A stretch of 64,000 nucleotides of DNA, from assembly GCA_958421325.1 (NCBI GenBank), contig CATZLO010000002.1:529-64528 (forward strand). Direction: 5' to 3'. Shown here in pieces: positions 7,843 to 57,906 of the stretch. Source of the stretch: an uncultured Bacilli bacterium (lineage in GTDB: Bacteria > Bacillota_I > Bacilli_A > RF39 > UBA660). Positions within the stretch are counted from its first letter, which is position 1. Each line of letters begins with the position of its first letter. Position numbers and translations under genes: made by a program. Below the pieces are notes generated by a model. It did no database searches. It was given only the letters and a program-made list of their open reading frames with translations, and had not been told where the DNA came from.

Positions 7843-9308
7843 TAGTGGGGATAGATAAAATTCTCGCTATTTTTATAAAATAAAAGAGACATATATAAGT
7901 CCTAAGATAAAATATAAATATTAACAATAAAAATATCGAAAGGATTTGATTATATATCTCAAGAAAATTATATAAGAAATTTATTAAATATTAAAGATAA
8001 AAATATAAAATTTTATAAAAACTTTTGTGAGGCTGGTATTAGTAAAGGTAAAAAATGTAAGTTTATTAATGCTTATTTATCTTATATTCCTACTCATTGC
8101 GAAAAGTGTGGTGTTATATTTGACTCTAAAGACGACTATGAGAAGAAAAGATTTTCTAATAGGTCCCCCTATGTTTTAATACCTAAAATATGTAAATTTA
8201 CTGCCTACCTTAAACTTGATAAACAACGTATTAAATGTCATCATTGTAACCAGTCTTTTACTTGTAAAACTGATTTAGTCGATTTTGGTTGTTTTATTTC
8301 TAACCCTACTAAACTTTCTATCGCTTCTGATTTAATAAAAAAAGAAGTGAAAAAGATATCGCCATTGATAATGATGTTTCTCCTAATACTGTTGAAAGAG
8401 TTATTGACTCTTATTATGATTCTAAAAAACTTTATAAGCATTATTTACCCGATGTTTTATGCTTTGATGAATTCAAATCTGTTAAATCTGCTGATGGTGT
8501 CATGAGTTTTAACATGTGTGATGGTACTAATGGCAAAACTATTGATATTGTTGAAGATAGAAAACCTTTTAGTCTTCTTAAATATTTTTCTTATTATTAC
8601 TCATAAGGCAAGAAGTAAGGTTAGGTTTATTGTTATTGATATGTATTCTCCTTATATTTCTCTTATTCTTAAGATGTTCCCTAATGCTTCTATTATTATT
8701 AATAAATTTCATTTGACTCAATTAATTTCCAAAGCTTTTAATAAAACTAGAATTATGGCTATGAAAAGGAATAAGAAAGACTATAGAAAACTTAAACGCT
8801 ATTGGAAATTGTTATTAAAATCTAGAGATGAACTTAAAGCCTCTGTATGGAAGAAATATACATGCTTTAATGATTTAACTACTGAAATTGATATTGTTAA
8901 TTATCTTATTAATTCTGATGATGAATTAAAAGATTCTTATCAAGCTTATCAAGATTTACCTTATGCTTTTCAACACAGTGATATTAAAGTATTAGAAGCT
9001 TCTTTAAATAATAATTATGAGCATCTTTCTTCATATATGACAACATCTATTAATACTCTAAAACGATTCCTACCTTATATTAAAAATACCTTTAATAATA
9101 ACTATCATAATGGTTATATTGAAGGAAATAACAACTTTATTAAAGTAATTAAAAAATTGCCTTTGGCTCTAGATCTTTTTCTCGATTTAAGGCTAGAATT
9201 ATGATTTGTAAAGGTCTAATTTTACCAAAAAGAAAAGAAGCATAATTCTATGCTTCAATTGATTATTTTGTCATTTGGATTTTCTTAAATCCCCACTATT
9301 TGACAAAG
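7843..9308 (+). mobile_element. Decayed ISL3-family insertion sequence
   Basis: Terminal inverted core TAGTGGGGAT (7843-7852) / ATCCCCACTA (9289-9298). The interior encodes an ISL3-type transposase in several frames. Confidence 0.7.
7930..9204 (+). pseudogene. ISL3 family transposase, multiple frameshifts
   Basis: Recognisable blocks: zinc-finger CEKCG..CHHCN, LCFDEFKSVKSADG.MSFNMCD, VIDMYSPYISLI..FPNA.III.KFHL.QLIS.AFNKTRI, KLKRYWKLLLK, GYIEGNNNFIKVIKK. The reading frame breaks near 8340, 8520 and 9150. Confidence 0.75.
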
Positions 9309-9439
9309 AAACTTTATATATTAAATTCGCACCAAATGCGAACAATTGTTCTGGCACGGAAACTGAACGAGTTTCCAAATTTTTAACGCCAAAGACTTTC
9401 TTTACAAAATCTATAACTATTTTACCATTTTTAATTGAT

Positions 9440-11149
9440 TTAAACAATAGTAATTATATTCTTCTGTGAACTTTCTTCATAATAACTATTAAAATTTCCA
9501 ACATCTAATAACCATAAACCAAAAACTTTTGATTTTTCAATGCAACTCTTAGGGTTAACTTTAATAATTTTAAACAACCACGGATTAACAAAATAGTCTT
9601 CTTCTTCTAAATAATCAACAACATCAAAGTCATACTTTTCTTGCAGTAATTCAATGTACTCTAAGGCATCTTTTTCATGTTTCATTTCTGCTATGCTTGC
9701 TTTATATACACCACTACCAACTATTTTATCTAACATATTACTATCTTCAAAATCTAATAGTTGTTTAACTTTATTTGATTTTAACTTCAAATCAGTTATT
9801 TCAATTTCGGTTATTTTGTTCCTTTTATTTTTAAGTTCCTTAATAACTACTGTATCAATGTAATTGTTAATAAACTCACATTTTGCCTCGTATGATGCCA
9901 TTTTCCATAACTCATTTAATTCTATGCTATCTAATAATTCCATTTTATCTTTAATGATTTTCTCATCAATAGCAAATCTTAATCTATGGTCTAATTTACA
10001 ATTATTAAATTTTTCTGCTGTTCTATTATCGGTTATATAATAATTATTTTTAATGATTGTACTAAGTTCTAATAAATTGTTTAATTCAGTAATTAAAGCA
10101 TTTTCTATAAGTTCTTCTCTAAGATAAATACCACAGTCCTTACACTTATAATAAAGATAATCATTTTTCATTTTATTTTTACAACCATTACAAGCAAGTA
10201 TTCGACCACAATGAGGACATACTAATCTTTGAATAAATAAGTAATTTTTAGACCGATAATAATTTCTACCATTTCTTGCTATCATTTCTTGGCAGTCATT
10301 ATATAATTCTTTACTTATTATTGCTGGAACAACTCCTATTATCTCCATAGTATCTTTATTTTTTACACTTTTACGATACTCATATACTCCCATATAAGAT
10401 TTATTATTTAATATCGTAGAAATAGAACTATCATTCCATTTTCTATAAATTATTTTTTCTTCGTTTGTTTCTTTATTTCTTCTAATACTTGATATTACTT
10501 TTGGATACTTTTCTTTTAATATCTTAGATATTTGAAAGTAAGTTTTACCACTAGCACATAACTCAAATATTTCTTTTACTATTTCCGCCTCATCTTTATC
10601 AATTTCCCATTCTTTTAATTTATGTTTACCACTATCATCTAATTTATGTTTATAGCCAAGTGGTGGCTTTCCTCCAATATGACCTTTATTAACTGCACTT
10701 TCAACACCTACTAATGTTCTTTCTTGTATCAGTTCTCTTTCAAACTGAGCAAATATTCCTAATATACGAGCAAACATCATACCTGCGGCACCAGTAGTAT
10801 CTATATTTTCACATAAGAACTCAATGCCACAATTATATTTTTTTAATTCTTTAAAAAATTCTTCAAAATCAATAATGCTACGACTTATTCTATCCATTTT
10901 AAAAGCCATTATCAAATTAAACTTACCTTTCTTCATATCCTTTAACATTTGCTGATAGGCAGGTCTGTTTTCAGCAGACTTGCCACTTATACCAGCATCA
11001 GTATATACTTTATATACTACATAATCATTAGACACACACCTTGCTTTTAATCTTTTTTCTTGCTCCTCTAAACTATGCCCTTCACGGGCTTGGTCTGTTG
11101 TGCTAACCCTAGTATAGATAGCAACTATTTTTTTATTTCCATTGTTCAT
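9440..11149 (-). CDS. Large serine recombinase (integrase of the left integrative element)
   Basis: N-terminal resolvase catalytic domain (VAIYTRVSTTDQ, MDRISRS), recombinase domain, zinc ribbon CPHCG..CKDCG, long coiled-coil C-terminus. 569 aa. Confidence 0.9.
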   Translation of the reverse strand: MNNGNKKIVAIYTRVSTTDQAREGHSLEEQEKRLKARCVSNDYVVYKVYTDAGISGKSAENRPAYQQMLKDMKKGKFNLIMAFKMDRISRSIIDFEEFFKELKKYNCGIEFLCENIDTTGAAGMMFARILGIFAQFERELIQERTLVGVESAVNKGHIGGKPPLGYKHKLDDSGKHKLKEWEIDKDEAEIVKEIFELCASGKTYFQISKILKEKYPKVISSIRRNKETNEEKIIYRKWNDSSISTILNNKSYMGVYEYRKSVKNKDTMEIIGVVPAIISKELYNDCQEMIARNGRNYYRSKNYLFIQRLVCPHCGRILACNGCKNKMKNDYLYYKCKDCGIYLREELIENALITELNNLLELSTIIKNNYYITDNRTAEKFNNCKLDHRLRFAIDEKIIKDKMELLDSIELNELWKMASYEAKCEFINNYIDTVVIKELKNKRNKITEIEITDLKLKSNKVKQLLDFEDSNMLDKIVGSGVYKASIAEMKHEKDALEYIELLQEKYDFDVVDYLEEEDYFVNPWLFKIIKVNPKSCIEKSKVFGLWLLDVGNFNSYYEESSQKNIITIV

Positions 11150-11834
11150 TTTTCTTTGCCTCTCTTTCTACTATATCGCTATATGTGTCAAATAGTTTTC
11201 GAGGTTTAACCTCTATTTTTGCTTTTTCTTGTTCACTCATTTTTATTCTCCCAAAACCTACAATTTCTTTCATAATTACAAAAACATCTCTACAAGTCCC
11301 CAAACAATTCCCATTATCGTCAAAAATAGGATTTTCTTCAAACCGAGATGTATCTTCTCCTAATAAATTTACCCAATTATATGGTGTTGTCGATTTAGGG
11401 TTTTTAACTTCAAATATGTTGAATTTAGGATAACATTTTGCTTTTCCCTTTTTTTCTTTTTTAATATTGTCATTTCTCTCTCTTTTAATTAGTGGTTTAA
11501 TGACTGGGGCATAAATATAAGAACTTTCTAATTGTAATTCATAATTATATTTATATAGTTCACCAATCAACTTATATAAATCTTCATCATTTTTTGCTAA
11601 TGTTTCCAAATTATACGAAAGTACAATATTAAATACTTTTGTTTTAATATCTTCAATCATTTTATTAAATTGTGGTTTTTTAACATTATCAGTATCAATA
11701 TATTCCTTAACTATATCTAAACCAAAATGCTTACAATATTTTTTTAAACGTTTTATTTGTTCATCTAAGGGTATTTCAACTTTAGAAGGTTTGCTACAAT
11801 ATATAGCAACCTCGTTTTTTACTAATATATTCAT
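11133..11834 (-). CDS. Resolvase-fold-like protein lacking catalytic residues, translationally coupled to the large serine recombinase
   Basis: N-terminus aligns by eye to the resolvase domain (VAIYCSKPS.. vs vaiYxRvSt; LETLAKNDEDL vs lDRlsR). The Arg/Ser/Asp-Arg positions are substituted. 17-nt overlap with the downstream LSR gene. Confidence 0.45.
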   Translation of the reverse strand: MNILVKNEVAIYCSKPSKVEIPLDEQIKRLKKYCKHFGLDIVKEYIDTDNVKKPQFNKMIEDIKTKVFNIVLSYNLETLAKNDEDLYKLIGELYKYNYELQLESSYIYAPVIKPLIKRERNDNIKKEKKGKAKCYPKFNIFEVKNPKSTTPYNWVNLLGEDTSRFEENPIFDDNGNCLGTCRDVFVIMKEIVGFGRIKMSEQEKAKIEVKPRKLFDTYSDIVEREAKKNEQWK

Positions 11835-11946
11835 TATTAGTCCTCCTTACATAATTTAATTTACTAGGAGGTTTTCTAAAACTATTCCAATTTAATTATA
11901 CTTATCATATAATATAAATAGGGAATTAGAAAACCCTACAACTTAT

Positions 11947-11986
11947 TATGAGGTTAGTACCTCGCTAAAGTTACTTTAACCTCATA
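11947..11986. other. Perfect 10-bp stem / 20-nt loop hairpin without flanking T-run (candidate recombination or replication site)
   Basis: TATGAGGTTA (11947-11956) pairs with TAACCTCATA (11977-11986). Not followed by a U-run on either strand. Confidence 0.4.
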
Positions 11987-12223
11987 TATCTTCAAGCATT
12001 ACTTTATGTAGTGCTTTTTATGTGCTGTCATTTATCACATTACCACCTACCTTTATTGAATAATAATTATAGTAGAATTTTACAAATAAACCAATCTACT
12101 ACTTACTAAGGGCAAAAATTTTTCCCTTGCACTTACATTATACTTAATTTGGTAGTATAATAATATATATCAATCGAACGCAATTTGTTAAATATTAGTT
12201 CGGTATATACGGGTGATAATATG

Positions 12224-13243
12224 AAATTGACTTATAGCGAAATATATGGAAAAGACACAAAAGGTAATGGCTATTGTTTACCTACATTAGAACTTTACTA
12301 TACTTATGAGGAAAGAAAACTGATACCTAAATCAAAATACTTAATAGAAGAAAAAGAAGAGGATAGTAATTTATATACTGCATATATACCTTTCTTTAGT
12401 ACATTTTTTGATGGGCTAAAGGAGGAAACCATATCAAAGTTAAAAAGTATATTTGATTTTACAAAAAAATATAACCGTAAAGATTACATTAGCAAAGAAA
12501 TATGGAAACCATTTTTATTTACATCTAATATTGCAATAGGAAACATCCAAAAAACTTACAATACCCACCTAGAAAAAGTAGAAAAACCTAATTCAAGACG
12601 ACCTCTATATAAAAAATATAACCGTAAAAGTGCTAATCAATTAGAAGTGGAAAAATATTATAAGAGTAGAGTCAGTAAATATAATCAAGAAATTGGTACT
12701 ATTCAGCGTAGCATATATAACGAACTAACAAATCATTTTTTAAATAACGTAAAACCTTCATTAAAACAAAATTATATAATTCAAAAAACAAGAGATAAAG
12801 ATTTACCTATATTAAGTATAATGAAACAAGGAGTATATGGTGGAATAATGAATATAGAATTTACTTTTGATTTTAGAAACGAATTAGAACTACTTTATTC
12901 CTTTTTGGAGTGTATTTTCCAATCTGATTATAACTATAAGATTAAAAGGTGTAATAATAAAGAATGCTTGAATTTTTACATAACATTAGATACCAAAACT
13001 AAACATTGCCCTTATTGTTTATCAACTATTAAAAAACTTCAAAAGCAGAAATATGAGAATAAAGATTTAGTTAAAATTGAAAGAAGGGTCTATCAGTTAG
13101 TTAATGCTCCTAATAGAAGAAATGAAAAAAAAGAATACTTAGGTACTAAACGAAAAAAAAAGAGAAAATTAGTAAATGGTATTATTACCGAAAAAGAATA
13201 TATTGATTGGCTTTTATCCTATTATAGAACTAAATATAACTAA
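12224..13243 (+). CDS. Hypothetical protein with C-terminal CxxC..CxxC zinc-ribbon-like motif and K/R-rich tail
   Basis: ATG 12224 inside track ORF 12185. Contains CNNKEC..HCPYC. No family recognised. Confidence 0.45.
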   Translation, partial: KLTYSEIYGKDTKGNGYCLPTLELYYTYEERKLIPKSKYLIEEKEEDSNLYTAYIPFFSTFFDGLKEETISKLKSIFDFTKKYNRKDYISKEIWKPFLFTSNIAIGNIQKTYNTHLEKVEKPNSRRPLYKKYNRKSANQLEVEKYYKSRVSKYNQEIGTIQRSIYNELTNHFLNNVKPSLKQNYIIQKTRDKDLPILSIMKQGVYGGIMNIEFTFDFRNELELLYSFLECIFQSDYNYKIKRCNNKECLNFYITLDTKTKHCPYCLSTIKKLQKQKYENKDLVKIERRVYQLVNAPNRRNEKKEYLGTKRKKKRKLVNGIITEKEYIDWLLSYYRTKYN

Positions 13244-13833
13244 TATTTTTTTACCATGTTATAAAAAGTATTAGGCTTTAACCCTAATAACTCCATTGCT
13301 TCTTTACTTTTAATCTCTTTATTTTTCCAACGACTAACCACAACATCAAAATCTTGTGGTTTTTCTATTTTTGGTCTACCAAACTTAACCCCATTATTTT
13401 TAGCATTAGTAATACCTTCTTTTTGCCTTTGTTTTATAAAAGTTCTTTCTTGCTCAGCAACATAACTTAATATTTGTAATACTAAATCACTAATAAAAGT
13501 TCCAAGCAAATCTTTATTCTTCCTAGTATCTAATAAAGGCATATCAATAACGACTATATCTGCCTTAATATTTTTAGTAATATCTTTCCACTCATCAATT
13601 ATTTGGTTATAATTTCTACCAAGTCTATCAATAGACTTAATAACCAACAAATCATTTTCCCTTAATATATGTTTTAATGTAATGTAATTTTCTCTATTAA
13701 AATCTTTACCACTTTGTTTATCGATATAAATATCTCTTTCATCAATACCATATTCTTTAAATGCTACTAATTGTCTTTCTTCGTTTTGCTCTTTGCTACT
13801 AACTCTAGCGTAGCCAAATATTTTACTTTTCAT
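13240..13833 (-). CDS. Small serine recombinase (resolvase/invertase family)
   Basis: IFGYARVSSKEQ catalytic serine block, IDRLGRN, C-terminal HTH. 197 aa. Confidence 0.85.
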   Translation of the reverse strand: MKSKIFGYARVSSKEQNEERQLVAFKEYGIDERDIYIDKQSGKDFNRENYITLKHILRENDLLVIKSIDRLGRNYNQIIDEWKDITKNIKADIVVIDMPLLDTRKNKDLLGTFISDLVLQILSYVAEQERTFIKQRQKEGITNAKNNGVKFGRPKIEKPQDFDVVVSRWKNKEIKSKEAMELLGLKPNTFYNMVKKY

Positions 13834-13839
13834 ATAAAC

Positions 13840-14070
13840 CTACCTCGCCAAATAATCGTTTGCTTCTTTTAAAACATTATCAATTATAGAATCGTTAACT
13901 AACTCATTATAATTAACCTTAATACATTTTCTTTGAAGCTCATCTATAAAATGTACTAATGCAATAGTATAAGGAAAGTAATGCTCATTTTCTTCTATGC
14001 CAGTTACTAAGGCATCTACATAACCATCACATATCCAGTCAACCAATTTTATTAAAATTGACTTATTCAC
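13840..14070 (-). CDS. Hypothetical small protein
   Basis: GTG 14070 lies 7 nt after AAGGAGGTG. The track ORF starts at 14091 inside the SD. Confidence 0.35.
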   Translation of the reverse strand: MNKSILIKLVDWICDGYVDALVTGIEENEHYFPYTIALVHFIDELQRKCIKVNYNELVNDSIIDNVLKEANDYLAR

Positions 14071-14195
14071 TTTATGACACCTCCTTACCATAAAATATAT
14101 AATATATGACTTTCAAAAAAGATACGAGCCGTTTTCTTTAAAAAAGTAGAAAAACTTTCCAAATATTTAAAAAGAATAGAAAAGACTTTTAACAA

Positions 14196-14233
14196 TACAA
14201 AAAAGACTTAAATTCTATTAAAATCTAAGTCTT
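14196..14233 (-). terminator. Rho-independent terminator after the HEPN gene
   Basis: AAGACTTA (14203-14210) / TAAGTCTT (14226-14233). On the minus strand it is followed by TTTTTTG. Confidence 0.6.
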
Positions 14234-14257
14234 TATAAACCTACACATTTTTAAATA

Positions 14258-15532
14258 TTATTTTAGATGTGTTATTAAATAATTCTCATCTACATTTATT
14301 CCTGCTAATGAATAAACCTCTAAATAAGCAACTGCCTTTATGAAATTTTTAACATCATACAACCATTGAATATCAATTTTTTTATATCTAATGGGATTAA
14401 AAGTTGGAATAGGTAATTCTTCTATATAATAACCATTATGTGAATAATAGTTTCTTAATGATCTAATTTCTTCTTCAATAATATTATTTTGTTGATTTTC
14501 AAAATATGTATCCTTAATCTTAGGGTATTTTTTTAATAATCCTATTAAAAAGTTAGTATTTTTTCCTTTATTCAACTTCTTTCTCATTTCAGTATCAGTA
14601 TATTCTAATACTCTATAATACTCTAAAAATTGTATTTCGGTTGAGGTAACCTTTCTATCAAAATTTAAAAAAGGAAAAAAACTATTACTGTTTTCATTTG
14701 TTATATTTAAAAATAAGTTAAACAATTTATCAAAATTAGTAATATTATTTTCTCTTTTGTCTAAATAAAAATTAGGTTGTTTTTCTTCCTTATCATTATT
14801 TTTAATATTATGGAATTCATAACTATTTTTTTTAGTATCATATATAGTCAATTCTTTACTCCTACCACTTGTAAGTAAAAATAGATGAATTACACTATCA
14901 ATTCTATTACTAATTTTTAAAACCGTATCTAAATCAACACTTTTTTGAAAAGCAATCTCTAAATATGCAGCTGGTTTGATATTAAGATTATATATGCTTC
15001 CACTATGACTATAACTGTTAATAAGTTTAATAATTATTTTATTATCTTTGTAAAAAGTACGAGAAATAATTTTTTCTTTTTGTTTTTTTGCTTCTATATT
15101 CATTTCATTTTCTTTCCTTTTAATAGTCATAGAAGCACTAGGGAATATATATTTAATATTATCATTATAATACACTATCTTTTTTATTTTAGTCTTATCT
15201 GTAAAGTGAGTAATAGGTGATAAAGCTTTATTTCCTACAATATACATTTGAGATGATATTATTGAATGAGGAATAGCATTAAAACTACTACTATTTATAC
15301 TACATCTATATAATGTTAGGGGATGATATGTACTATTTATCCCATAAAATATTTTTGTTTCTATCAACTTACCAAATTCGCTGTTATAAAAACCAAAAGT
15401 ACTAAATTTATCTATATCTTTTACTTTCAGTTCCAATCTATCTTCTTTTTTATTAACAATAACTAATTTTTGTTCTTCTTCATTTATTTCTTTAAAAGGA
15501 ACTAAATCTAAATAACCAAATTCATTATTCAT
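14258..15532 (-). CDS. ApeA-like HEPN-domain protein (candidate single-gene defence nuclease)
   Basis: C-terminal Rx4H motif (SLRNYYSHNGYY) preceded by FLEYYRVLEY helix. About 300-aa N-terminal domain. Architecture as recalled for ApeA. ATG 15532 follows GGTGG. Confidence 0.45.
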   Translation of the reverse strand: MNNEFGYLDLVPFKEINEEEQKLVIVNKKEDRLELKVKDIDKFSTFGFYNSEFGKLIETKIFYGINSTYHPLTLYRCSINSSSFNAIPHSIISSQMYIVGNKALSPITHFTDKTKIKKIVYYNDNIKYIFPSASMTIKRKENEMNIEAKKQKEKIISRTFYKDNKIIIKLINSYSHSGSIYNLNIKPAAYLEIAFQKSVDLDTVLKISNRIDSVIHLFLLTSGRSKELTIYDTKKNSYEFHNIKNNDKEEKQPNFYLDKRENNITNFDKLFNLFLNITNENSNSFFPFLNFDRKVTSTEIQFLEYYRVLEYTDTEMRKKLNKGKNTNFLIGLLKKYPKIKDTYFENQQNNIIEEEIRSLRNYYSHNGYYIEELPIPTFNPIRYKKIDIQWLYDVKNFIKAVAYLEVYSLAGINVDENYLITHLK

Positions 15533-15595
15533 AAATACCACCAAAAAATATTATACAATATTTTTATTATGTATCATAGGAATTTACGGTTTATT

Positions 15596-15685
15596 CCTCG
15601 CAAATTTCAATAAAAAAAGATAACTCAATATAATTTATACTAAATTACCTAAACGACCTTAAACTTACTAATATGCTGTTTTTTT
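15596..15685. repeat. Cassette-junction repeat copy R1 (AT-rich hairpin, T-run, TTGAAA)
   Basis: About 80 percent identical by eye to 16709-16800. Shared blocks TTTCAATAAAAAA, TAATATAATTTATACTAAA, CCTTAAACTTACTA. Confidence 0.6.
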
Positions 15686-15725
15686 ACTAACTATTCAATT
15701 TTTAAAACATATATTTTAAAACACA

Positions 15726-16670
15726 TTATTTTATAGCATTATAATAGTCATTGCATAATTGCAATAAATAGTCTTTTTTTACTATACTATCTAACCATTT
15801 GCTAGGTAAATTACCATAATATATTCCACTTAAACCGCCAACCAATGCTCCAATAGTATCACTATCATTTCCTAAATTGATGGCTTCAATGACACATTTA
15901 TCATAACTATTATTATTTATAAAACACCATATCACTGCCTCTAATGTATCAACAACAAAGCCCATACTACTAATACTATCTACATCTAATTTACTAATAT
16001 CGTTATTTAATAATTGGTCATAATATTTTATATTTTCCAAACTAAAATACTTTCTATAATTATATTTTCTTACATTACTATAAGCATTTTCTTTTTCCTT
16101 GCCACTTAATAACTCTATAACTAACAACACATATATAAAACAACCTAATATACTTATTTCATGGCTATGCGTAAGTGATGATATATCTTTTACTAAATTA
16201 TATATTTCATCATCATTTAATTTTTTATAATAACAATAGTAAACAATAGGTAATATTCGCATTAAACTACCATTACCATTATAATTAAAACCTTTCATAC
16301 CACATTCAGTTATCTTTTCATATCTTTTATTATGATAATTTCCTAAAGCAAAAAATGTTGCTCTGCCAATGCCGAATGCTTTATCTATGGCAATAAAATC
16401 TTTATTTGAAACCCATAAAATAAAATTATCCATAATACTTTCATAATTTATCTTGCCTTTATTATCTATAATTGATTTCATTGTAGCAATAACCATACTA
16501 CTATCATCAGACCAAACACCTTTTACACCAACTCTATCACTACTAATCATATCAATAACTTTATTATTTTTAAATAACTCTCTTTTTTTAAATTCTAATG
16601 GAACACCTAAGGCATCACCAATAATAAAACCTAATATTCCATTTTTCAATTTATTAAAATCACACATCAT
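15726..16670 (-). CDS. ADP-ribosylglycohydrolase family protein (DraG/ARH-like)
   Basis: Motifs GFIIGDALGVPLEF, WSDDSSM, GNGSLMRILP, LGNDSDTIGALVGGLSGIYYG. Confidence 0.85.
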   Translation of the reverse strand: MMCDFNKLKNGILGFIIGDALGVPLEFKKRELFKNNKVIDMISSDRVGVKGVWSDDSSMVIATMKSIIDNKGKINYESIMDNFILWVSNKDFIAIDKAFGIGRATFFALGNYHNKRYEKITECGMKGFNYNGNGSLMRILPIVYYCYYKKLNDDEIYNLVKDISSLTHSHEISILGCFIYVLLVIELLSGKEKENAYSNVRKYNYRKYFSLENIKYYDQLLNNDISKLDVDSISSMGFVVDTLEAVIWCFINNNSYDKCVIEAINLGNDSDTIGALVGGLSGIYYGNLPSKWLDSIVKKDYLLQLCNDYYNAIK

Positions 16671-16708
16671 TACCACCTAATTATATTATATATTAAATAC
16701 TTACTTAT

Positions 16709-16800
16709 TTCGCCTTTATTTCAATAAAAAAGAGTAACCTAATATAATTTATACTAAACTATATTAAATTACCTTAAACTTACTATAAATGCTAATTTTT
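16709..16800. repeat. Cassette-junction repeat copy R2
   Basis: Homologous to 15596-15685. Contains imperfect hairpin GTAACCTAATATA..TATATTAAATTAC, then a T-run and TTGAAA on the minus strand. Confidence 0.6.
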
Positions 16801-17626
16801 ACTTTATATACTCAACACCATCAATAATCAATGAGATAACATTTTTATTACTATCATATTTTATTTGGAACTCACTTCTTAACTTAGCACCAAAACTATT
16901 TTCACTATCTACATAGGCTTGCACTGTAACAATTCCATTATCTTTGCCAAACTTCCAATTATTTATATTAGGGAACTTTGCTGTACTTGGGGCCTTTAAT
17001 AATGACTTAATTCTTTCTTGGGCATCAATATTATACTCATTTTTCTCATCCCAACTGATTAAATAATCATTAAAATTCAACAATACCTTGCCATCTCTAT
17101 AAAAATCTTTATCTGCCCATCTTATACATATAATTTTATTATCACTACTAACATATAAAATTATATTATTATTTTGACTAAAACTGGCTTTAACTCTATA
17201 ACCTTTAGACCCAGCACCCTCATATTCATCTAATGCTTCATCTGCCTCTATACTATCAATTTCATCAATGCCAATGCTTTTAAAAATATTCTCCATTGCT
17301 ATTGCTTCTTCATTATTAACATTTAAACTACTTTTAATTTCTTTTACCATTTTTGAACTATTATCTACTGGCTCAACTTTTCCACCTGTCGCTATCATTG
17401 CAATTGCTACTACTAAAAATATTAAACCAACTGCACCACCAAATATAATAGCAAATATTTTACCAACACTTTTTTCTTTTGGCTTATCAACTTTTGGCTC
17501 CTTAATATTGCTTTCTTTCTTTACATATTTTTCTTTTTTACCCTTATTCTTAATAGCCTTAACTATAAAATAAATAGGCAATACTATAACCGCAACCCCT
17601 AACAACAAATAAAATAAATCTTCCAT
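16799..17626 (-). CDS. Hypothetical two-TM membrane protein with extracytoplasmic C-terminal domain
   Basis: Two hydrophobic helices separated by a K-rich linker. No family recognised. Confidence 0.45.
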   Translation of the reverse strand: MEDLFYLLLGVAVIVLPIYFIVKAIKNKGKKEKYVKKESNIKEPKVDKPKEKSVGKIFAIIFGGAVGLIFLVVAIAMIATGGKVEPVDNSSKMVKEIKSSLNVNNEEAIAMENIFKSIGIDEIDSIEADEALDEYEGAGSKGYRVKASFSQNNNIILYVSSDNKIICIRWADKDFYRDGKVLLNFNDYLISWDEKNEYNIDAQERIKSLLKAPSTAKFPNINNWKFGKDNGIVTVQAYVDSENSFGAKLRSEFQIKYDSNKNVISLIIDGVEYIK

Positions 17627-17757
17627 ATCTACACCTCACTATACATAATTATATATTATTTTAGCAAAATATACAATATCAATTATATAAATATAACTAA
17701 TATTGCTATCACTGATTTTTAATAATTCTAAAATTATATATAAAGGAGGGTAATCGC

Positions 17758-18090
17758 GTGGAGAATAATTTAAAACAAATTCGTAATAATAAAAATCTGT
17801 TGCAAACAAAAGTTGCTATGGATTTAAACATTACCCAAGAAGCTATATCTTCTTATGAAACTGGTAGGGTTTTCCCAAGTTCTGATATGTTAATTAAACT
17901 TGCTAACTACTACAATACATCTATTGACTACTTATTATGTCGAACTAAATATGATATGCCTATTGATGATGTTAAACCAAATAATATTTCCGATACTGAC
18001 TTTATCTTACTTAACAAAATCAACAAATTATCTACTACTAATAAAGCTAAAGTAGAGGGCTATATAGATGGTTTAAATGATAGTAAATAA
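17758..18090 (+). CDS. XRE-family helix-turn-helix transcriptional regulator
   Basis: LKQIRNNKNLLQTKVAMDLNITQEAISSYETGRVFPSSDMLIKLANYYNTSIDYLL. GTG start after AAAGGAGGG. Confidence 0.8.
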   Translation: MENNLKQIRNNKNLLQTKVAMDLNITQEAISSYETGRVFPSSDMLIKLANYYNTSIDYLLCRTKYDMPIDDVKPNNISDTDFILLNKINKLSTTNKAKVEGYIDGLNDSK

Positions 18091-18351
18091 TTATGCCACA
18101 GCCACATCTTCTGGCTTTGGCTTTTTTACTCCAATAAATTCTATTATTTCTATGTCTTTATATTTTTTAAGTAACTCCACATACTCTTTAACACTATTAC
18201 AATAAACAAATTTAACTTCTTCCTTATAAATTAAATCTAACCTTATAGGACTATCTTCTTTTATCCATACATAAATTTTTAAAATACCATTATTACCAAT
18301 GACTTTTTTTATTTTATCTAATTTATTTTCAATACTACTTAAACTAACCAT
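18091..18351 (-). CDS. Hypothetical small protein
   Basis: ATG 18351 overlaps the upstream gene's end by 8 nt. No motif recognised. Confidence 0.35.
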   Translation of the reverse strand: MVSLSSIENKLDKIKKVIGNNGILKIYVWIKEDSPIRLDLIYKEEVKFVYCNSVKEYVELLKKYKDIEIIEFIGVKKPKPEDVAVA

Positions 18352-18736
18352 TACTAGCACCAACCTTTTCATTTAATAATTCTTCTATCTCTTTCATCTT
18401 ATCCATAATATTTCTTTGTTCATTAAACTTTAATATCATATCTAAAATGCTTTTAGAAGCATTTAATCTAACATTACTACTAACATTTTCATCATCTAAC
18501 ATACTATTTAAGACTGTTATTGCCTTATTTCCAAGTAAATTTATCTTATCAATACAATTATCTACTATAATACTTTTTCTCTCGTTTAAAACTACTTTAA
18601 ACTCGGTATTAGCAAGCCATCTATTTAAAGTGGCTTCGCTAACACCTACATTCTTAGCACTTTCCACTATGCTATTGCCTTTTAATAATTCATTTATTGC
18701 TAATTCTTGTCTTACATTTAACTTACCCATAATCAT
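18344..18736 (-). CDS. HTH DNA-binding protein (phBC6A51-type / terminase-small-subunit-like HTH)
   Basis: LNVRQELAINELLKGNSIVESAKNVGVSEATLNRWLANTEF resembles the N-terminal HTH of small terminase-like phage proteins. Confidence 0.4.
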   Translation of the reverse strand: MIMGKLNVRQELAINELLKGNSIVESAKNVGVSEATLNRWLANTEFKVVLNERKSIIVDNCIDKINLLGNKAITVLNSMLDDENVSSNVRLNASKSILDMILKFNEQRNIMDKMKEIEELLNEKVGASNG

Positions 18737-18867
18737 TGCTCCTTTTATTATTTTTAGTAAAAATACTATTATTTCCTATTAAAAACTATTATTTTTACTG
18801 TCTTTTCTTTAATATTATATGTTTTTTTAATTATCTAATAGTTCTTATTATAATAGGGTAATCTAAT

Positions 18868-19593
18868 CTACTTAAAACCTTTATATTTATTATTATAAAA
18901 GCATTTTCTACTTACTGGTTTTGCCAATAAATTCAATTTTCGAGCAATATCAAAATAAGTAACTGTAAAACCTTTACTTTCAATAAACTGGGTTAAAATA
19001 CTTTGCTTCTCTATATATTTTATTATATGTTCATAATCTTCCTTTCTATTTTTGGTTTTTCTTCTATTCACATTCAAATTAGTTAAACTACATCTAGGAA
19101 CTCGCTGATTTTTATTCTTTCTCTTTGCTAATATTCCACTCATAAGGACATCTAAATTCTTGTTATACCCTTTATAGTAATGTTTATAAAAATTAGGGGT
19201 ATCGTAAACACTTTTATCAAATTCTTCTTTTGCTAATTTTTTATTTAATACTTTCTGCAAATATTCCTCAATATCTCTAACCATAGTACCTAATGGGGCA
19301 CCACAAACCATAACGTGTAAATGCCAATTAACATATTTAATTCCTTTTGTTATATTCTTAGGCATAAATTCAGTTCTAGGTCTGCCGACACCATTTGTCT
19401 TATATTTATAATCAACACTATCGCCATCAACATTAGATAAACCCACAAAGATACTGTAATCATAATCACTGCTTTTATATTTATATTTAATAAACTTAAT
19501 TAAATTATAATAGACTGCCTTCGCTTCATCTTCACTAAACAAATAATATATTGGGGTACTTAATAATGTAACACCAAATCTTCTATTACTCAT
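18868..19593 (-). CDS. Putative HUH-type rolling-circle Rep/relaxase-like protein
   Basis: Candidate motif 1 FGVTLLST, motif 2 NWHLHVMV (HUH), motif 3 YEHIIKYIEKQ (Tyr). Family not confirmed. Confidence 0.4.
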   Translation of the reverse strand: MSNRRFGVTLLSTPIYYLFSEDEAKAVYYNLIKFIKYKYKSSDYDYSIFVGLSNVDGDSVDYKYKTNGVGRPRTEFMPKNITKGIKYVNWHLHVMVCGAPLGTMVRDIEEYLQKVLNKKLAKEEFDKSVYDTPNFYKHYYKGYNKNLDVLMSGILAKRKNKNQRVPRCSLTNLNVNRRKTKNRKEDYEHIIKYIEKQSILTQFIESKGFTVTYFDIARKLNLLAKPVSRKCFYNNKYKGFK

Positions 19594-19883
19594 TAGACTG
19601 CCTCTTTCATAGTATCTAATATTAAATTTAGTTTTTTCATATCTATCGGCATTTTTCTATTATATAAAAACATATTATCTTCATCAAAGTACAGTACCAA
19701 TATCTTTTTACCATTTAATTTTATTAAAAATCTATGTGGCTCAATAAAACTTACATTAGTTCTATCTACATTTAGTATTCTTCCTTGCGTAAATTCATAT
19801 TTAGCACTATGAAAATCACAAGCTATTTTAATTTTCCTCTCAAACTTTTCATTTCTTCTTAAATCTACATAATCTTTTATCAT
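19593..19883 (-). CDS. Hypothetical small protein
   Basis: ATG 19883 follows GGAGGTG. ATGA-type overlap with the Rep-like gene. Confidence 0.4.
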   Translation of the reverse strand: MIKDYVDLRRNEKFERKIKIACDFHSAKYEFTQGRILNVDRTNVSFIEPHRFLIKLNGKKILVLYFDEDNMFLYNRKMPIDMKKLNLILDTMKEAV

Positions 19884-19907
19884 TTTCACCTCCAATTTTA
19901 TGGCAAA

Positions 19908-19941
19908 CTAAAACACGGACAAACTCTACGTTTTCCGTGCT
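19908..19941 (-). terminator. Terminator downstream of tRNA-Trp
   Basis: CACGGA (19915-19920) / TCCGTG (19935-19940). On the minus strand it is followed by TTTTAGTTT. Confidence 0.55.
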
Positions 19942-19983
19942 TTTATATATGTTTACTCCATATTTTTGGAGATTATCCACATC

Positions 19984-20057
19984 TGGCAGGGACATCAGGA
20001 TTTGAACCCGAATAGATGGTTTTGGAGACCACTATGTTACCATTACATCATGTCCCT
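19984..20057 (-). tRNA. trnW: tRNA-Trp (anticodon CCA), 3' CCA encoded
   Basis: Minus strand reads AGGGACA..GGTCTCCAAAACC..GGTTCAAATCC..TGTCCCTGCCA. 7-bp acceptor stem, anticodon loop CTCCAAA, T-loop GGTTCAAATCC. Confidence 0.9.
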
Positions 20058-20254
20058 ATAAAGCTCTTTTTAAGAGCAAATTTATTATAACATATTTTTA
20101 TTGTTTTTTAACACTATTTATTGTGTTTTACAATTTTTGAATTTGATTTAAATTATTGAGTTTGCCACCAATAGTGACCACACCTTAAATATCTAAATCT
20201 TAAAAACTCAATATTTACAAGGGATAATTGGCATTCCTTCTCTAAACAACAAGA

Positions 20255-20340
20255 GTTTTGGAGACTCCTATGTTTCCTATATGGGTTCTTTTTAGAACAT
20301 ATTAATTATAGCATAGTTTATAATGATTTGACAATATATT
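20255..20340 (-). pseudogene. Degenerate copy of the tRNA-Trp promoter, leader hairpin and D/anticodon arm
   Basis: GTTTTGGAGACTCCTATGTTTCC (20255-20277) vs GTTTTGGAGACCACTATGTTACC in the intact gene. The upstream hairpin GTTCTttttAGAAC parallels GCTCTTtttaAGAGC. The acceptor/D 5' part and the whole 3' half are missing. Confidence 0.5.
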
Positions 20341-20346
20341 TTTAAT

Positions 20347-20587
20347 GAAGAGGTGGACATACATTAGGATCCGGGGCATAGAAACAATGATTTTTAAATC
20401 TTCCTGCTAGGGTTTGATCATACCATGTACTAATACAGTTGTTATTTCTTCCAGGGGCATAGAACCATAAAGCATTAGTAGCAGGGTAGTAATATTCTCC
20501 TTTTAAGTTTCTTTCTGCTAGTTCTCTTTCTTTGATAGTAGAGCCTGATGTAAATTGTGGGCTGTTGATACCAGCGAAACCTCCAGG
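20347..20587 (-). pseudogene. cwlJ: cwlJ (SleB/CwlJ Hydrolase_2 family cortex-lytic enzyme), C-terminal fragment
   Basis: Minus strand reads (PGGF)AGINSPQFTSGSTIKERELAERNLKGEYYYPATNALWFYAPGRNNNCISTWYDQTLAGRFKNHCFYAPDPNVCPPLH*. It continues the N-terminal fragment at 53589-53782. Confidence 0.8.
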
Positions 20588-20606
20588 TTTTTGTTAGTTA
20601 GTACTA
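20580..20606. other. attL of the prophage (core CCTCCAGG plus phage arm TTTTTG-TTAGTTAGTACTA)
   Basis: Core at 20580-20587 is identical to 53589-53596. The 13-bp arm 20594-20606 is the exact inverted copy of 53570-53582. Confidence 0.75.
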
Positions 20607-21956
20607 TATAAAATTAACAGTTATGTTTTTGTTTTTGTCTATTGTTATATTATCAATAATACTTCGCCAAAGTCTTTGTTTTTCTACATCTGTTAAAGTG
20701 TCATAAATGGTTAAGAAATCCATTTTTAGAAACTTTTGTAGATTATCTATATTAATATTTTGCTCTTCTTGGTTCGCTTGTTCTTCTTTCTTTAACTCTT
20801 CTTTTAAATAGTTGTAGTCATTATTATACTTATCTTTGTCTATTAAATCATTAAGATATAGATCCACAAGTTTATTCATTTTATTTTTTATTTCTGTTGC
20901 TTTATTTTTTCTTGTTATCTTTTTCTTTTTATTTGCATTTAAGATATTATTTTCTGCTATTTTTAAAATATTTTCTTTTAAATAGTCCTCAATATACATT
21001 TCTGTTAATGCTGTTGTATTGATACAATTCCTTTCTACGTAGTGTTGTTTACATCTGTATATTTTTGTATAACCTGTTTTGGCACCTCTTGTTCCTCCTG
21101 CCATTTTAAAACCGCATTCTTCACATATTATTAAACCACTAAATATATAATCTCTCTTTGTGTTAGAGTTATATATTTTTATGTTTCTTTTTAATTCTTT
21201 TTGCACTCTGTAAAATTTATCTTCATCAATAATAGCAGGGCAGAAGTCTTCTATTAGTTCTTTGTTTTTAGTCGTTGTAAATTTTCCTATATATTTAGTA
21301 TCAGTAAGATAGTTTCTAATACTTCCTATACTCTTATTTCCTATATTATTTTTAAACCATTGATGAGTTTTTACTAAGCTTGATGTTTTTAAGTAGTAGT
21401 CATATAATTCATTTAATTGCTCTGCTTCTTTTTCATTAATTATAAGATGCTTATTTTTATCTATATCATAACCAAATATTTTAGCTCCTGTACAAACTGT
21501 CTTTGCAACTTTATATTTGTAGTTATTTACTCTATTAATACGTTCAGAGTCCTTATTTCTTTCGTGTTCTGCAAGGTTTACTTTAAGGTTGAATATAAAT
21601 CTACCATCAGCAGTAGAAGTGTCTATATCGTCCTCATCTATAGCTTTAAATGAAGTGTTATGTTTATCTAATTCTACTAGTAGGTTATTAGCATCTCTTA
21701 CATTTCTTGAAAACCTATCTAATTTTGTAAAAATGATTAAATCTATATTATCAAGGTCTTTAAGCAGTCTTACAAATTCTTTTCTTTTTGATATTGTTCC
21801 TGCTGATACACCTTCATCTATGTAATAGTCATATATTTTATATTTATTTCTTTTACAATATTGTGTTAAACTGTTCTTTTGATCGTCAACTGATATTCCA
21901 AACCTCTTTTGTTCTTCAGTTGATACCCGACAATATATTGCTACATTTTTAATCAT
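20604..21956 (-). CDS. Large serine recombinase (prophage integrase)
   Basis: VAIYCRVSTEEQ, LDRFSRN, recombinase domain, zinc ribbon CEECG..CKQH..C, coiled-coil C-terminus. The stop codon lies inside the att arm. Confidence 0.9.
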   Translation of the reverse strand: MIKNVAIYCRVSTEEQKRFGISVDDQKNSLTQYCKRNKYKIYDYYIDEGVSAGTISKRKEFVRLLKDLDNIDLIIFTKLDRFSRNVRDANNLLVELDKHNTSFKAIDEDDIDTSTADGRFIFNLKVNLAEHERNKDSERINRVNNYKYKVAKTVCTGAKIFGYDIDKNKHLIINEKEAEQLNELYDYYLKTSSLVKTHQWFKNNIGNKSIGSIRNYLTDTKYIGKFTTTKNKELIEDFCPAIIDEDKFYRVQKELKRNIKIYNSNTKRDYIFSGLIICEECGFKMAGGTRGAKTGYTKIYRCKQHYVERNCINTTALTEMYIEDYLKENILKIAENNILNANKKKKITRKNKATEIKNKMNKLVDLYLNDLIDKDKYNNDYNYLKEELKKEEQANQEEQNINIDNLQKFLKMDFLTIYDTLTDVEKQRLWRSIIDNITIDKNKNITVNFI

Positions 21957-53569: not shown

Positions 53570-53596
53570 TAGTACTAACTAATAAAAGCCTCCAGG
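53570..53596. other. attR of the prophage (phage arm TAGTACTAACTAA-TAAAAG plus core CCTCCAGG)
   Basis: Exact inverted copy of the attL arm. Identical 8-bp core. Confidence 0.75.
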
Positions 53597-53782
53597 ATTT
53601 TGATAAACCATTTTAGTAATAGTATTTATATTTCTAAAAGTATAGCAGTTAGCAAGTACTCTATTTACGCCAACATTACCTACCATAAGCATACCGTATT
53701 CTCCTTCGCCTACTGCTTCGGCTCGCATTAGTCTTGCTAATAAATCTAATTCTTTACTTGTATATTGAACTACTTGAGACAT
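53589..53782 (-). pseudogene. cwlJ: cwlJ, N-terminal fragment
   Basis: MSQVVQYTSKELDLLARLMRAEAVGEGEYGMLMVGNVGVNRVLANCYTFRNINTITKMVYQNPGGF, then phage-derived Y*. The LARLxRAEA.GEG..GM..VGNV..NR block is typical of CwlJ/SleB. Confidence 0.8.
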
Positions 53783-53864
53783 ATAATCACCTAATATAAT
53801 TTATGATTTTTATAGTAAATTGTTCTACTAAGTATTAGTAAACTGTGGTAAAATTAATGTAGAG

Positions 53865-54917
53865 GTGAATTTCGTGAAAAAGAAAAAGGGAAAAAGAATT
53901 GTTTTTATTATATTTATTATTCTTTTGCTAACTTTAGTAGGTGGTGCTTATTATTATTTTATTTATCTTGGTAATGATATTCCTTTAGTTGAAAAAAAGG
54001 AGGAGTTGAGTGTTTATGATGTTAATAGTAATAAACGTCCTATTGCTGTTATGATTGATAACAATGTAGAGAATGATGAGCAAGTAGGGTTACAAGATGC
54101 TTATTTAACTTATGAGATAATAGTAGAAGGTGGGCTAACTCGTATAATGGCTATTTATAAAGATGTTGATACTGGTGTTATTGGACCAGTTAGAAGTAGT
54201 AGACATTACTTTTTAGATTATGCTCTTGAAAATGATGCTATTTATGCTCATTATGGATGGAGTATGTATGCTCAAAATGACATAAAAGCTTTAGGTGTTA
54301 ATAATATTAATGGACTTTATGATGATGCTTTTTATAGAGATAGTAGTATAGTAGCGCCTCATAATGTTTTCACTAGTATTGATAATTTATATTTAGTGGC
54401 AGAAGAACTTGGTTATGATACTACATCTGATAGTTACGAAAACTTAAATTATGTTACTAAAAAAGTAGATTTAGAGAAAACTGATAAATTACAAAATTGT
54501 GATGGTGATAATTGTAGTTTAGAAGGAACTGCTTTAACTAATATTGAGATACCTTATTCTAATAGTGAGGTTAGAAGTTATACTTATGATAGTGAGAAAG
54601 GTTATTATTTACGTTATATGAATGGTATTGCCCATACTGATAGGGATGGTGGCGAACAATATCATTATAAAAATATAATTATTATGAAAGTAGATAATAG
54701 TACTCTTGATGATTATGGTAGGCAAGATTTAGATACAGTAGGTAGTGGGGAAGGCTATTATATTACTAATGGTTATATGATGCCTATTACTTGGGAGAAA
54801 GATTCTAGAAGTGGTAAGACATATTATTCTTATAGTAATGGTGATGAGATAGAAGTTAGTGATGGTAATACTTTTATACAAGTAATGCCTAGTGATAGAG
54901 ATATAGTTGTTAATTAA
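53865..54917 (+). CDS. DUF3048-domain protein (YerB-like), paralog A
   Basis: N-terminal TM/signal. RPIAVMIDN..GLQDAYLTYEIIVEGGLTRIMAIYKD..GPVRSSRHYFLDYA. The start may be GTG 53874. Confidence 0.7.
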   Translation: MNFVKKKKGKRIVFIIFIILLLTLVGGAYYYFIYLGNDIPLVEKKEELSVYDVNSNKRPIAVMIDNNVENDEQVGLQDAYLTYEIIVEGGLTRIMAIYKDVDTGVIGPVRSSRHYFLDYALENDAIYAHYGWSMYAQNDIKALGVNNINGLYDDAFYRDSSIVAPHNVFTSIDNLYLVAEELGYDTTSDSYENLNYVTKKVDLEKTDKLQNCDGDNCSLEGTALTNIEIPYSNSEVRSYTYDSEKGYYLRYMNGIAHTDRDGGEQYHYKNIIIMKVDNSTLDDYGRQDLDTVGSGEGYYITNGYMMPITWEKDSRSGKTYYSYSNGDEIEVSDGNTFIQVMPSDRDIVVN

Positions 54918-54933
54918 TAGGGGGGGTTGGTTT

Positions 54934-55155
54934 ATGGGAATGGCAGATAAAATGAAAGAAAAGGCTTTGCCTGCTACTAGTGTGGTAAGGTCAAGTAAAG
55001 TTTTAAAAAGTATTGATAAAGCAGATGAGTTTGAATTGAAGAATGCTAATGAACTTGTTACTTTACAGAATAGAAGGGAAGATATTGCTAGTACAGAGAC
55101 TTTTAAAGGGTATAAATCTATGGAAAGTTCTTATGTAAAAAAACTAGTTAGGTAA
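54934..55155 (+). CDS. Hypothetical small protein
   Basis: ATG 54934 follows a G7 run acting as SD. Originally followed by a terminator that is now split by IS3. Confidence 0.4.
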   Translation: MGMADKMKEKALPATSVVRSSKVLKSIDKADEFELKNANELVTLQNRREDIASTETFKGYKSMESSYVKKLVR

Positions 55156-55172
55156 TAATAAAAGACTATCTA

Positions 55173-56625: not shown

Positions 56626-56791
56626 CTATGGATTATTATAGATAGTCACTTTTTTCGTTCCCGTTTTGGTTGGGAACACCACTTTTTAATTATGCTTATA
56701 ATGTATTATATTTTTCGATACTTTGTAAATAGTATATTTTTTTGTCAAGTATTGGAAACTTTAAGGTAAAAGTTTAATTATTCTTTATTAT

Positions 56792-57898: not shown

Positions 57899-57906
57899 GG
57901 GGACTT

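Follow-up and report, generated by a model that had tools for sequence, protein, structure and literature searches.

A repeated terminator-like junction module in the cargo zone of an integrative island from uncultured gut Bacilli, with a possible part in the swapping of candidate defence genes

Promoter-early stem-loop (PeSL) elements of T4-type phages are intergenic repeats of ~100 bp in which an early promoter is paired with a stem-loop terminator (PMC2839356, PMC4122927). Previous studies placed PeSLs in hyperplastic regions, at the boundaries of insertions and deletions (indels), and proposed that they mediate modular shuffling through homologous recombination (Arbiol et al. 2010, PMC2839356; Comeau et al. 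2014, PMC4122927). The stretch considered here is a window of 64,000 nucleotides from an uncultured Bacilli bacterium (GCA_958421325.1, contig CATZLO010000002.1, positions 529 to 64,528 of the forward strand; positions below are those of the window), which carries an integrative island with two copies of a junction module between its cargo genes. The PeSL motif appears to be the closest described analogue of this module. Both are ~100 bp long, start at the stop codon of the upstream gene and contain a stem-loop terminator with G-T or G·U pairs; moreover, both are repeated in variable regions, lie at the boundaries of insertions, deletions or replacements, and include chimeric motifs. However, there is no sequence relationship between them, and PeSLs belong to lytic T4-like myoviruses, while the module belongs to an integrative island of gut Bacilli. 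What defines a PeSL is a strong sigma-70 promoter that contains or adjoins the stem-loop, whereas the core of the module is the putative terminator and its promoter part is doubtful. The copy number also differs, with ~50 PeSLs per phage genome and one or two modules per island, and mini-circles formed when neighbouring motifs recombine are a further trait of PeSLs.

Defence hotspots of satellites and prophages have been described for P4 and P2 (Rousset et al. 2022, PMC9122126; PMC13586616), and the island resembles them in having a short variable zone between the core genes of a small satellite-like element, where known or candidate anti-phage genes (DRT, KAP NTPases, Abi, HEPN) are rapidly swapped. 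Unlike those elements, the island has a large serine recombinase, an XRE repressor, a TerS-like gene and an uncultured low-GC host, and its cargo zone is slotted (a membrane protein, an ADP-ribosylglycohydrolase (ARH) or Macro protein, and a defence gene) with a repeated junction module. As far as the main text of a 2026 survey of P4 and P2 goes, homologous recombination would need shared flanks and the mechanism of swapping is left open; the word "terminator" is absent from that main text, and its searched passages hold no repeated junction sequences (PMC13586616).

Integron cassettes are likewise single-gene units beside the gene of a site-specific recombinase, with a structured repeat between them, and their open reading frames (ORFs), like those of the cargo zone, are packed tightly against a downstream conserved sequence. 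However, integrons use the tyrosine recombinase IntI and attC sites with R and L boxes, whereas the island has a serine resolvase and what reads as a sense-strand RNA terminator with a T-run; integron cassettes are promoterless, whereas the units of the island have their own promoters and no single crossover point. An identity with attC and integron gene cassettes was rejected, given the serine resolvase neighbour, the lack of attC architecture and the TATAAT box of each cargo gene. Morons of temperate phages are autonomous promoter-gene-terminator units inserted between phage genes. Like morons, the cargo genes have their own -10 box (and ribosome-binding site, RBS), are bounded by predicted terminators and are gained or lost as blocks, while morons usually lack a shared bounding repeat and here the module and the leaders recur at junctions.

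With a probability that we put at roughly 0.6, the module is a terminator-centred junction between single-gene cargo units which also serves as a portable homology arm for cargo swapping. It would insulate each cargo gene as a transcription unit of its own, a role that is suggested because each cargo gene also carries its own TATAAT box and RBS. In addition, since the same module stands at several junctions and in many island lineages, it might act as a short portable homology arm, working alongside the conserved flanks on the XRE side and the resolvase side, and general or phage-type homologous recombination would then swap, add or delete cargo between co-resident islands. What the sequences show directly is the repeat, its strand-specific hairpin, its position and orientation, the variety of cargo, the breakpoints at the module and the chimeric copies, while we infer termination, recombination at the module and the direction of events. 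The idea of cassette junctions, which was raised in an earlier note on this window, is partly supported, in a form that relies on homologous recombination and not on a dedicated recombinase.

In the window, the minus strand carries, in this order, the gene for a 275-aa membrane protein, spacer B, the ARH gene, spacer A, a HEPN candidate, spacer C, a small ORF and the gene for a small recombinase. Spacers A and B share a homologous module with 79-80% identity over ~82-97 nt and one 1-nt indel (MAFFT, repeat finder). Copy A (15587-15683, minus strand; nhmmer 80.1 bits, E = 6e-23) lies between the ARH and HEPN genes, and copy B (16702-16798, minus strand; nhmmer 72.7 bits, E = 1.2e-20, and alignment with copy A) runs from the membrane-protein stop codon to a point 31 nt short of the ARH gene's first ATG (16670). 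The local alignment of spacer A with spacer B scores 89, while 1000 dinucleotide-preserving shuffles, the control for the spacer alignments, gave 26.7 +/- 4.3 with a maximum of 47, and 0 of the 1000 reached 89. Pattern and repeat searches of the 64-kb window returned these two copies only. The module has a conserved 5' block, AGCATWT(A)TAGTAAGTTTAAGG, and a 3' block, ATTGAAAT-N5-GARRAATAA, and inside it are three tandem units of ~10 bp, namely AGTTTAAGGT, AGTTTAGGT and AATTTAGT.

The homology of two intergenic segments had been claimed in the earlier note, and it is borne out by the ~80% identity and by a score that no shuffle matched. The note had also seen a third, diverged copy at 14105-14245 (spacer C), which was rejected: its alignment is at chance level, with 581 of 1000 and 696 of 1000 shuffles aligning to the modules equally well, and a hidden Markov model of the module gives negative scores only on this spacer across 14 related islands. 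Spacer C, here called IG-C (14092-14257, minus strand), is the conserved right flank of the cargo zone and not a homologue of the module. It has a hairpin of its own (14202-14234), a T-run and then a promoter-like site, TTGAAA-N18-TATGGT, ahead of the small ORF, and since these features come without module homology, IG-C is functionally analogous to the module and not a copy of it.

In structure, the module reads best as an intrinsic terminator. In copy B, a hairpin at 16730-16775 (minus strand) has 21 pairs and a 3-nt loop (-20.3 kcal/mol, z = -3.6), and pattern matches place a T-run at 16726-16731 and then TTGAAA at 16719-16724 on the same strand. The hairpin of copy A (15618-15650, minus strand), identified by folding, pattern match and strand asymmetry, has 15 pairs and a 3-nt loop, and the T-run (15612-15618) and TTGAAA (15605-15610) follow on the minus strand, again by pattern match. 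Structures were compared in an alignment of 18 distinct module copies from the window and related loci. In all 18, an AT-rich stem of 11-19 bp with many A-U and G·U pairs precedes T5-7; a simple terminator scan missed the modules because it demands at least three G-C pairs. The mean hairpin energy is -13.3 kcal/mol on the sense strand and -4.2 kcal/mol on the antisense strand, with the sense hairpin stabler in 17 of 18 copies (Wilcoxon p = 1.5e-5), and this large difference arises because each stem holds 1-6 G·U pairs. In the consensus helix of the 18 copies, 97.2% of cells are paired (31-50% with the 3' partner slid), and all 14 pairs vary, 12 of them through one-sided changes among G-U, A-U and G-C that keep the pairing and two through compensatory changes. 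The module always stands in sense orientation, just 3' of the upstream stop codon in the direction of the gene. The strand-specific hairpin, the T-run and the position after the stop codon thus form the signature of an intrinsic terminator, and the restriction of the hairpin to the sense strand speaks against a double-stranded palindromic protein site. The prediction of a Rho-independent (intrinsic) terminator is well supported in silico.

In the earlier note, each module was said to terminate one gene and to supply a -35 box for the next. The former part agrees with the hairpin and T-run of all 18 copies, while for the latter no well-spaced TATAAT was found and TTGAAA is mutated in 5 of the 18 distinct copies (intact in 13), which leaves TTGAAA a doubtful -35 box for the downstream gene. 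At 17-19 nt downstream of TTGAAA there are only weak -10 candidates (TAAATT, TAATTT, TATTTA), and the nearest good TATAAT lies 28-51 nt downstream, in leaders that are either cargo-specific or separately shared. In L055, TTGAAA is changed to GTAAAA. A TATAAT box of its own stands before each cargo gene, ~8-10 nt ahead of a GGTG-type RBS. For the HEPN gene, a promoter-like site, ATGATA-N16-TATAAT, lies at 15550-15577 (minus strand), and the leader with this site is also found upstream of the cargo genes for a 286-aa protein and a KAP NTPase. The ARH leader has its TATAAT box at 16685-16690 (minus strand), and its ATTTAATATATAAT block is common to the Macro leaders of other islands.

The module was searched for with one exact pattern in one genome per GTDB species and in the JGI metagenomes. 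The GTDB scan returned true copies in the loci L011, L012, L015, L017, L018 and L020, all of which are islands, and its other four matches were due to chance, while the JGI scan added copies in L025-L027. In addition, the HEPN protein and five resolvase variants were looked up, which brought the collection to about 60 island contigs; the island loci come from metagenome assemblies and were picked up with one DNA pattern and a small number of protein anchors. Outside the island family, the exact-pattern scans (one pattern in GTDB and JGI, three in IMG/VR) gave chance matches only. The IMG/VR patterns, for the module, the hairpin core and IG-C, returned nothing or chance matches, and BLASTN of the region against GenBank phages returned no match.

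Between the XRE gene and the pair of small ORF and resolvase gene, at least 18 cargo layouts were found among the about 60 contigs, in a zone of 3-4 kb, and the module is present in 15 of the at least 18, with one or two copies per island and in the cargo zone only. The earlier note had named as cases against its idea a module that occurs nowhere else and related elements that always carry the same three genes in the same order; instead, copies exist in six other loci from genomes or metagenome-assembled genomes (MAGs) and in three metagenome loci, as well as in many island contigs reached by way of the adjoining proteins, and the cargo varies as widely as these layouts. With M for the module, the window has the layout membrane275-M-ARH-M-HEPN. 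Others are DUF4268-200aa-ARH-M-HEPN, DUF4268-200aa-ARH-M with a DRT UG13b reverse transcriptase replacing HEPN, and DUF4268-200aa-ARH with nothing after ARH (L076), as well as membrane303-M-ARH-M-286aa, membrane304-M-Macro-286aa, membrane275-M-Macro, membrane303-M-195aa, DZR-M-Macro-196aa, 266aa-198aa-Macro-HEPN, 266aa-198aa-Macro-M-KAP NTPase, membrane303-M-ARH317-KAP NTPase and PH_gly_zipper-DUF6508-AbiN-like; several further layouts have Macro fragments and then small unknown genes. To the left of the module stand genes for membrane or PH_gly_zipper proteins (275, 303-304 aa), a 206-aa protein after DUF4268 (L057), DZR, ARH or Macro proteins, and to its right those for ARH, Macro, HEPN, the DRT reverse transcriptase, KAP NTPase and the 286-aa or 195-aa proteins. 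Cargo matches to defence families include DRT UG13b (E = 1e-130), PDC-S20 (E = 1e-45), PDC-S49 (E = 3e-53), an AbiN-like family (E = 5e-17) and Macro. Judged by its gene content, the cargo zone qualifies as a defence hotspot, with variable genes between conserved core genes and cargo that matches defence families.

Slot 2 is taken either by ARH or by a Macro-domain protein, which are unrelated enzyme families that both remove ADP-ribose. The loci concerned are the window (15726-16667), L020 (5425-5940), L025, L047, L048, L050 and L056-L062, and islands with a 317-aa ARH keep a 61-67-aa Macro fragment just downstream as a trace of replacement. In L036 (1869-2974), two modules are intact while a frameshift has broken the intervening ARH gene into ORFs of 189 and 221 aa, and thus slot 2 can decay and leave the modules in place.

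Comparison of the related islands with one another places ends of homology at the edges of the module and inside it. L029 carries the reverse transcriptase and L037 carries HEPN; their identity is 98% over a stretch that begins with the XRE gene and stops precisely at the 3' edge of the module, and past this edge they are unrelated up to the cargo stop codon. In the pairs window/L036 and L055/L057, homology begins exactly at the 5' edge of the module and the upstream genes differ, and when L012 is compared with L048 or with the window, the module stands out as a lone patch of 77-89% identity between unrelated genes. Moreover, homology between L012 and L025 breaks inside the module, and the module L036a is chimeric, with an A-type left half and a B-type right half, as is that of L026. 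By our own rough tally, which involved no formal test, ~12 of 17 internal homology ends lie within ~15 nt of the module.

The outer limits of the exchanged genes are sharp as well. The stop codons of last-position cargo genes lie 1-3 nt before one conserved block, ATTTAAAAANGTRWAGGTTTATAAAG (ATTTAAAAANGTRWAGG), which is found at 14231-14257 of the window and also in L025, L036, L037, L047, L048, L050, L055, L057 and L076, and the cargo that ends at it comprises HEPN, the 286-aa protein, two KAP NTPases, a 145-aa and a 196-aa protein, and ARH (L076). On the upstream side, leader homology extends down to just before the RBS, both between ARH and Macro leaders and among HEPN, 286-aa and KAP leaders. 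With stop codons 1-3 nt from a shared block and leaders shared to the RBS, the swaps are thus nearly ORF-precise. L017 does not hold as a clean empty site, since it retains a remnant of a Macro-type leader and has more probably arisen by deletion; L076 serves better as an island without cargo, and the module is absent there too.

Several observations weigh against a role of the module as a homology arm. Homology between the window and L037 breaks inside the 5' end of ARH, and in window/L020 and L036/L025 it breaks at the RBS, while in L047, L076 and L063 the cargo varies although there is either no module or only a diverged hairpin; the module is therefore a frequent, not an obligatory, boundary. 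Selection for intact genes alone would also be expected to leave breakpoints between genes. In addition, copies A and B in one island are ~80% alike while orthologous copies between islands are ~93% alike, so that frequent exchange between A and B in one molecule is not evident, and homologous recombination explains the inheritance of the sharp right-hand junctions but not their first origin. The proposal of the earlier note that the shared junctions could be the substrate of cassette exchange finds partial support in the breakpoints and chimeras at the module, though not for every swap.

A possible but unlikely alternative is that the module is a terminator only, with no part in recombination, which was inherited with the upstream gene or duplicated once; recombination within the long flanks, together with illegitimate events that pass selection for intact genes, would then produce the mosaic. 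The swaps and deletions without a module in L047, L076 and L063 fit this explanation, as do the breakpoints at the RBS or inside ARH and the lack of concerted evolution between copies A and B, and the flanks, namely the resolvase gene with >180 bp of IG-C to the right and the XRE gene to the left, suffice for ordinary homologous recombination. However, a terminator of this kind does not account well for the isolated patch between unrelated neighbours in L012/L048 and L012/window, for the chimeric modules of L036a and L026, or for the clustering of homology ends near the module, as far as our informal count goes, and one and the same module follows at least six upstream gene families. It is quite improbable that the Sin-like recombinase and its 76-83-aa partner use the module, or the sharp left edge of the right flank, as their site, in an integron-like arrangement in which the two direct repeats would allow ARH to be excised as a circle. 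The cargo zone is indeed bordered on its right by the small serine recombinase, without exception among the islands, and the recombinase's best structural matches are Sin/Bin3 and gamma-delta resolvases, which are users of res sites. Sin/Bin3 and gamma-delta resolvases act on directly repeated res sites of ~100 bp; the module is of res-like size with three tandem units, and unrelated cargo genes end 1-3 nt from the ATTTAAAAANGTRWAGG block. But the hairpin depends on G·U pairs, is a poor DNA palindrome, as its antisense and sense energies indicate, and is followed by a T-run, and the spacer that adjoins the recombinase gene is not homologous to the module. The modules are also out of keeping with res sites, which adjoin the recombinase gene and combine a dyad-symmetric crossover site with accessory sites, in lying ~1.75 and 2.9 kb from the recombinase gene and in their poor symmetry at the DNA level. 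Moreover, the breakpoints spread over the 5' edge, the core, the 3' edge and beyond with no single crossover point, the cargo genes carry their own promoters, and neither a B x A deletion product nor an inversion was found among the about 60 island loci. A role of the small recombinase as an invertase was rejected as well, with no inverted island segments in the ~60 loci and no convincing inverted repeats around it. To the same low degree it is conceivable that the Sin-like recombinase and its 76-83-aa partner catalyse the near-ORF-precise capture of defence ORFs, as in an expression socket with the module as one of the recombinase's sites; ORFs may then be exchanged between a shared promoter/RBS leader (or the module) and the post-stop block, and the zone would be a cassette system of integron type that relies on a serine recombinase.

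Returning to the module as an RNA, a cis-regulatory element (an attenuator or riboregulator) or a small-RNA gene, conserved through binding of a ligand or protein, is highly improbable. The conserved blocks beside the hairpin exceed what a minimal terminator needs, and the 3' arm has two possible 5' partners, GGTAGTTTAG and GTAATTTAG; yet both pairings still form the terminator, so that there is no anti-terminator alternative. The diverged copies of L050 and L063 keep the hairpin and have lost the flanking blocks, and Rfam returned no relevant family for the region at gathering thresholds or at E <= 1. It is hardly credible that the module is a miniature mobile repeat, of the type of miniature inverted-repeat transposable elements (MITEs) or repetitive extragenic palindromic (REP) sequences, inserted at several spacers. 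A repeat of ~100 bp with internal dyad symmetry at several junctions would suit such an origin, but terminal inverted repeats and target-site duplications are both lacking, the orientation of the module and its position relative to stop codons are fixed, and only two copies occur in the 64-kb window, with none found outside the cargo zone of this island family.

Among the genes of the cargo zone, that of the 275-aa membrane protein in slot 1 (16799-17626, minus strand; phrog_26910, E = 1.6e-58) clusters by its product with PH_gly_zipper, zinc-ribbon and DZR proteins of 200-322 aa from other islands. The ARH gene in slot 2, between the two modules (15726-16667, minus strand; PF03747, E = 1e-59), encodes 313 aa from the second ATG, which is the start chosen by gene calls in public assemblies. 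Slot 3 holds the defence cargo, a 424-aa ApeA-like HEPN candidate (14258-15532, minus strand) assigned through PF18862 and an RNYYSH motif; its match to PF18862 ApeA_NTD1 (E = 3.7e-5, 23.8 bits) is below the cut-off of 25.5, and the motif lies near the C-terminus and is kept in a relative of 77% identity. No PDB sequence match was found for the HEPN candidate and no PADLOC match for the cargo proteins of the window. Of the gene labels that had been given from the sequence, ARH is thus confirmed and HEPN holds in part.

On the right side, the small ORF of 76-83 aa (13840-14091, minus strand) lies directly upstream of the resolvase gene in nearly all islands examined and is absent in L012; in L075 (1782-3407), an IS110-family element lies just upstream of its RBS. 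The gene for the 197-aa small serine recombinase (13240-13833, minus strand; PF00239, E = 1e-25) is the right anchor of the cargo zone, and its product is Sin/Bin3-like (PDB match, E = 4e-29), with gamma-delta resolvase also among the best solved-structure matches. The left anchor is the gene of an XRE-type repressor (17758-18090, plus strand; HTH_3, E = 3e-13), which is divergent from the membrane gene and present in all islands.

The integrative island as a whole is ~10.7 kb long (~9350-20030, by homology limits against L001, L002 and L003) and ends inside a tRNA gene at 19987-20057, which it partly overlaps. It carries a gene for a 569-aa large serine recombinase (9440-11149) and an ORF of 233 aa (11133-11834) with a partial resolvase N-terminal domain (E = 1e-8), which runs into the beginning of the large recombinase gene and is also conserved among related islands; L001 has a 45-bp deletion in its large recombinase, which there is split into two ORFs. 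A gene for a TerS-like 130-aa protein (18344-18736; phrog_2538, E = 3.5e-8) is also present, and no virion genes (capsid, tail) were found in the island. By its gene content the island looks like a phage satellite or a small integrative island, and the TerS-like gene without virion genes, together with the end inside a tRNA gene, suggests the former. We know of no phage satellite described in such gut Bacilli. Related islands with a 520-aa recombinase are inserted in an NMT1-family gene instead, and in L049 (1-3000) and L056 (11371-14591), two islands, or an island and an island-like element, stand in tandem at one site, the second element of L056 being equipped with a KAP NTPase of 842 aa, a Macro fragment and a separate XRE gene. 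The islands come from uncultured low-GC Bacilli of the gut (MAGs titled uncultured Bacilli, Tenericutes or Mycoplasma), and a near-identical resolvase is recorded from Firmicutes bacterium CAG:822. A 13/14 match between ACTATTTTACCATT (9416-9429) and ACTATGTTACCATT in the tRNA gene was tried as the att core of the island, but it is off the homology limits and was not used.

L002 is 99.97% identical to the window over 9047-20593 and 53585-58541 and lacks 20594-53584. Since it has the island and the flanks without this stretch, 20594-53584 is a separate prophage of ~33 kb, with its own 450-aa large serine recombinase (20604-21956). That the module is part of the prophage was therefore rejected, as L002 carries an identical island without it, and the element in which the earlier note had placed the cargo is the separate ~10.7-kb island and not the prophage that fills much of the window. 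The prophage is inserted in a Hydrolase_2 (SleB-like) gene, and its junctions have a shared core of ~17 bp around CCTCCAGG with inverted TAGTACTAACTAA arms just inside. As well, an IS3-type transposase ORF pair lies in the host flank at 55213-56579.

The island family offers a compact natural case for how anti-phage genes swap rapidly in hotspots, and the terminator-centred module with the shared leaders is a concrete candidate for the source of the homology that such swapping would need. It would carry the PeSL idea beyond lytic T4-like phages, to an integrative island of satellite-like character, in a host that belongs to an uncultured low-GC gut lineage whose mobile elements are little known. 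Moreover, the conserved anchors (the XRE gene, the module, IG-C and the resolvase gene) may be used as probes for candidate defence genes in gut metagenomes, of which the unannotated 286-aa, 195/196-aa and 219+145-aa cargo proteins are examples.

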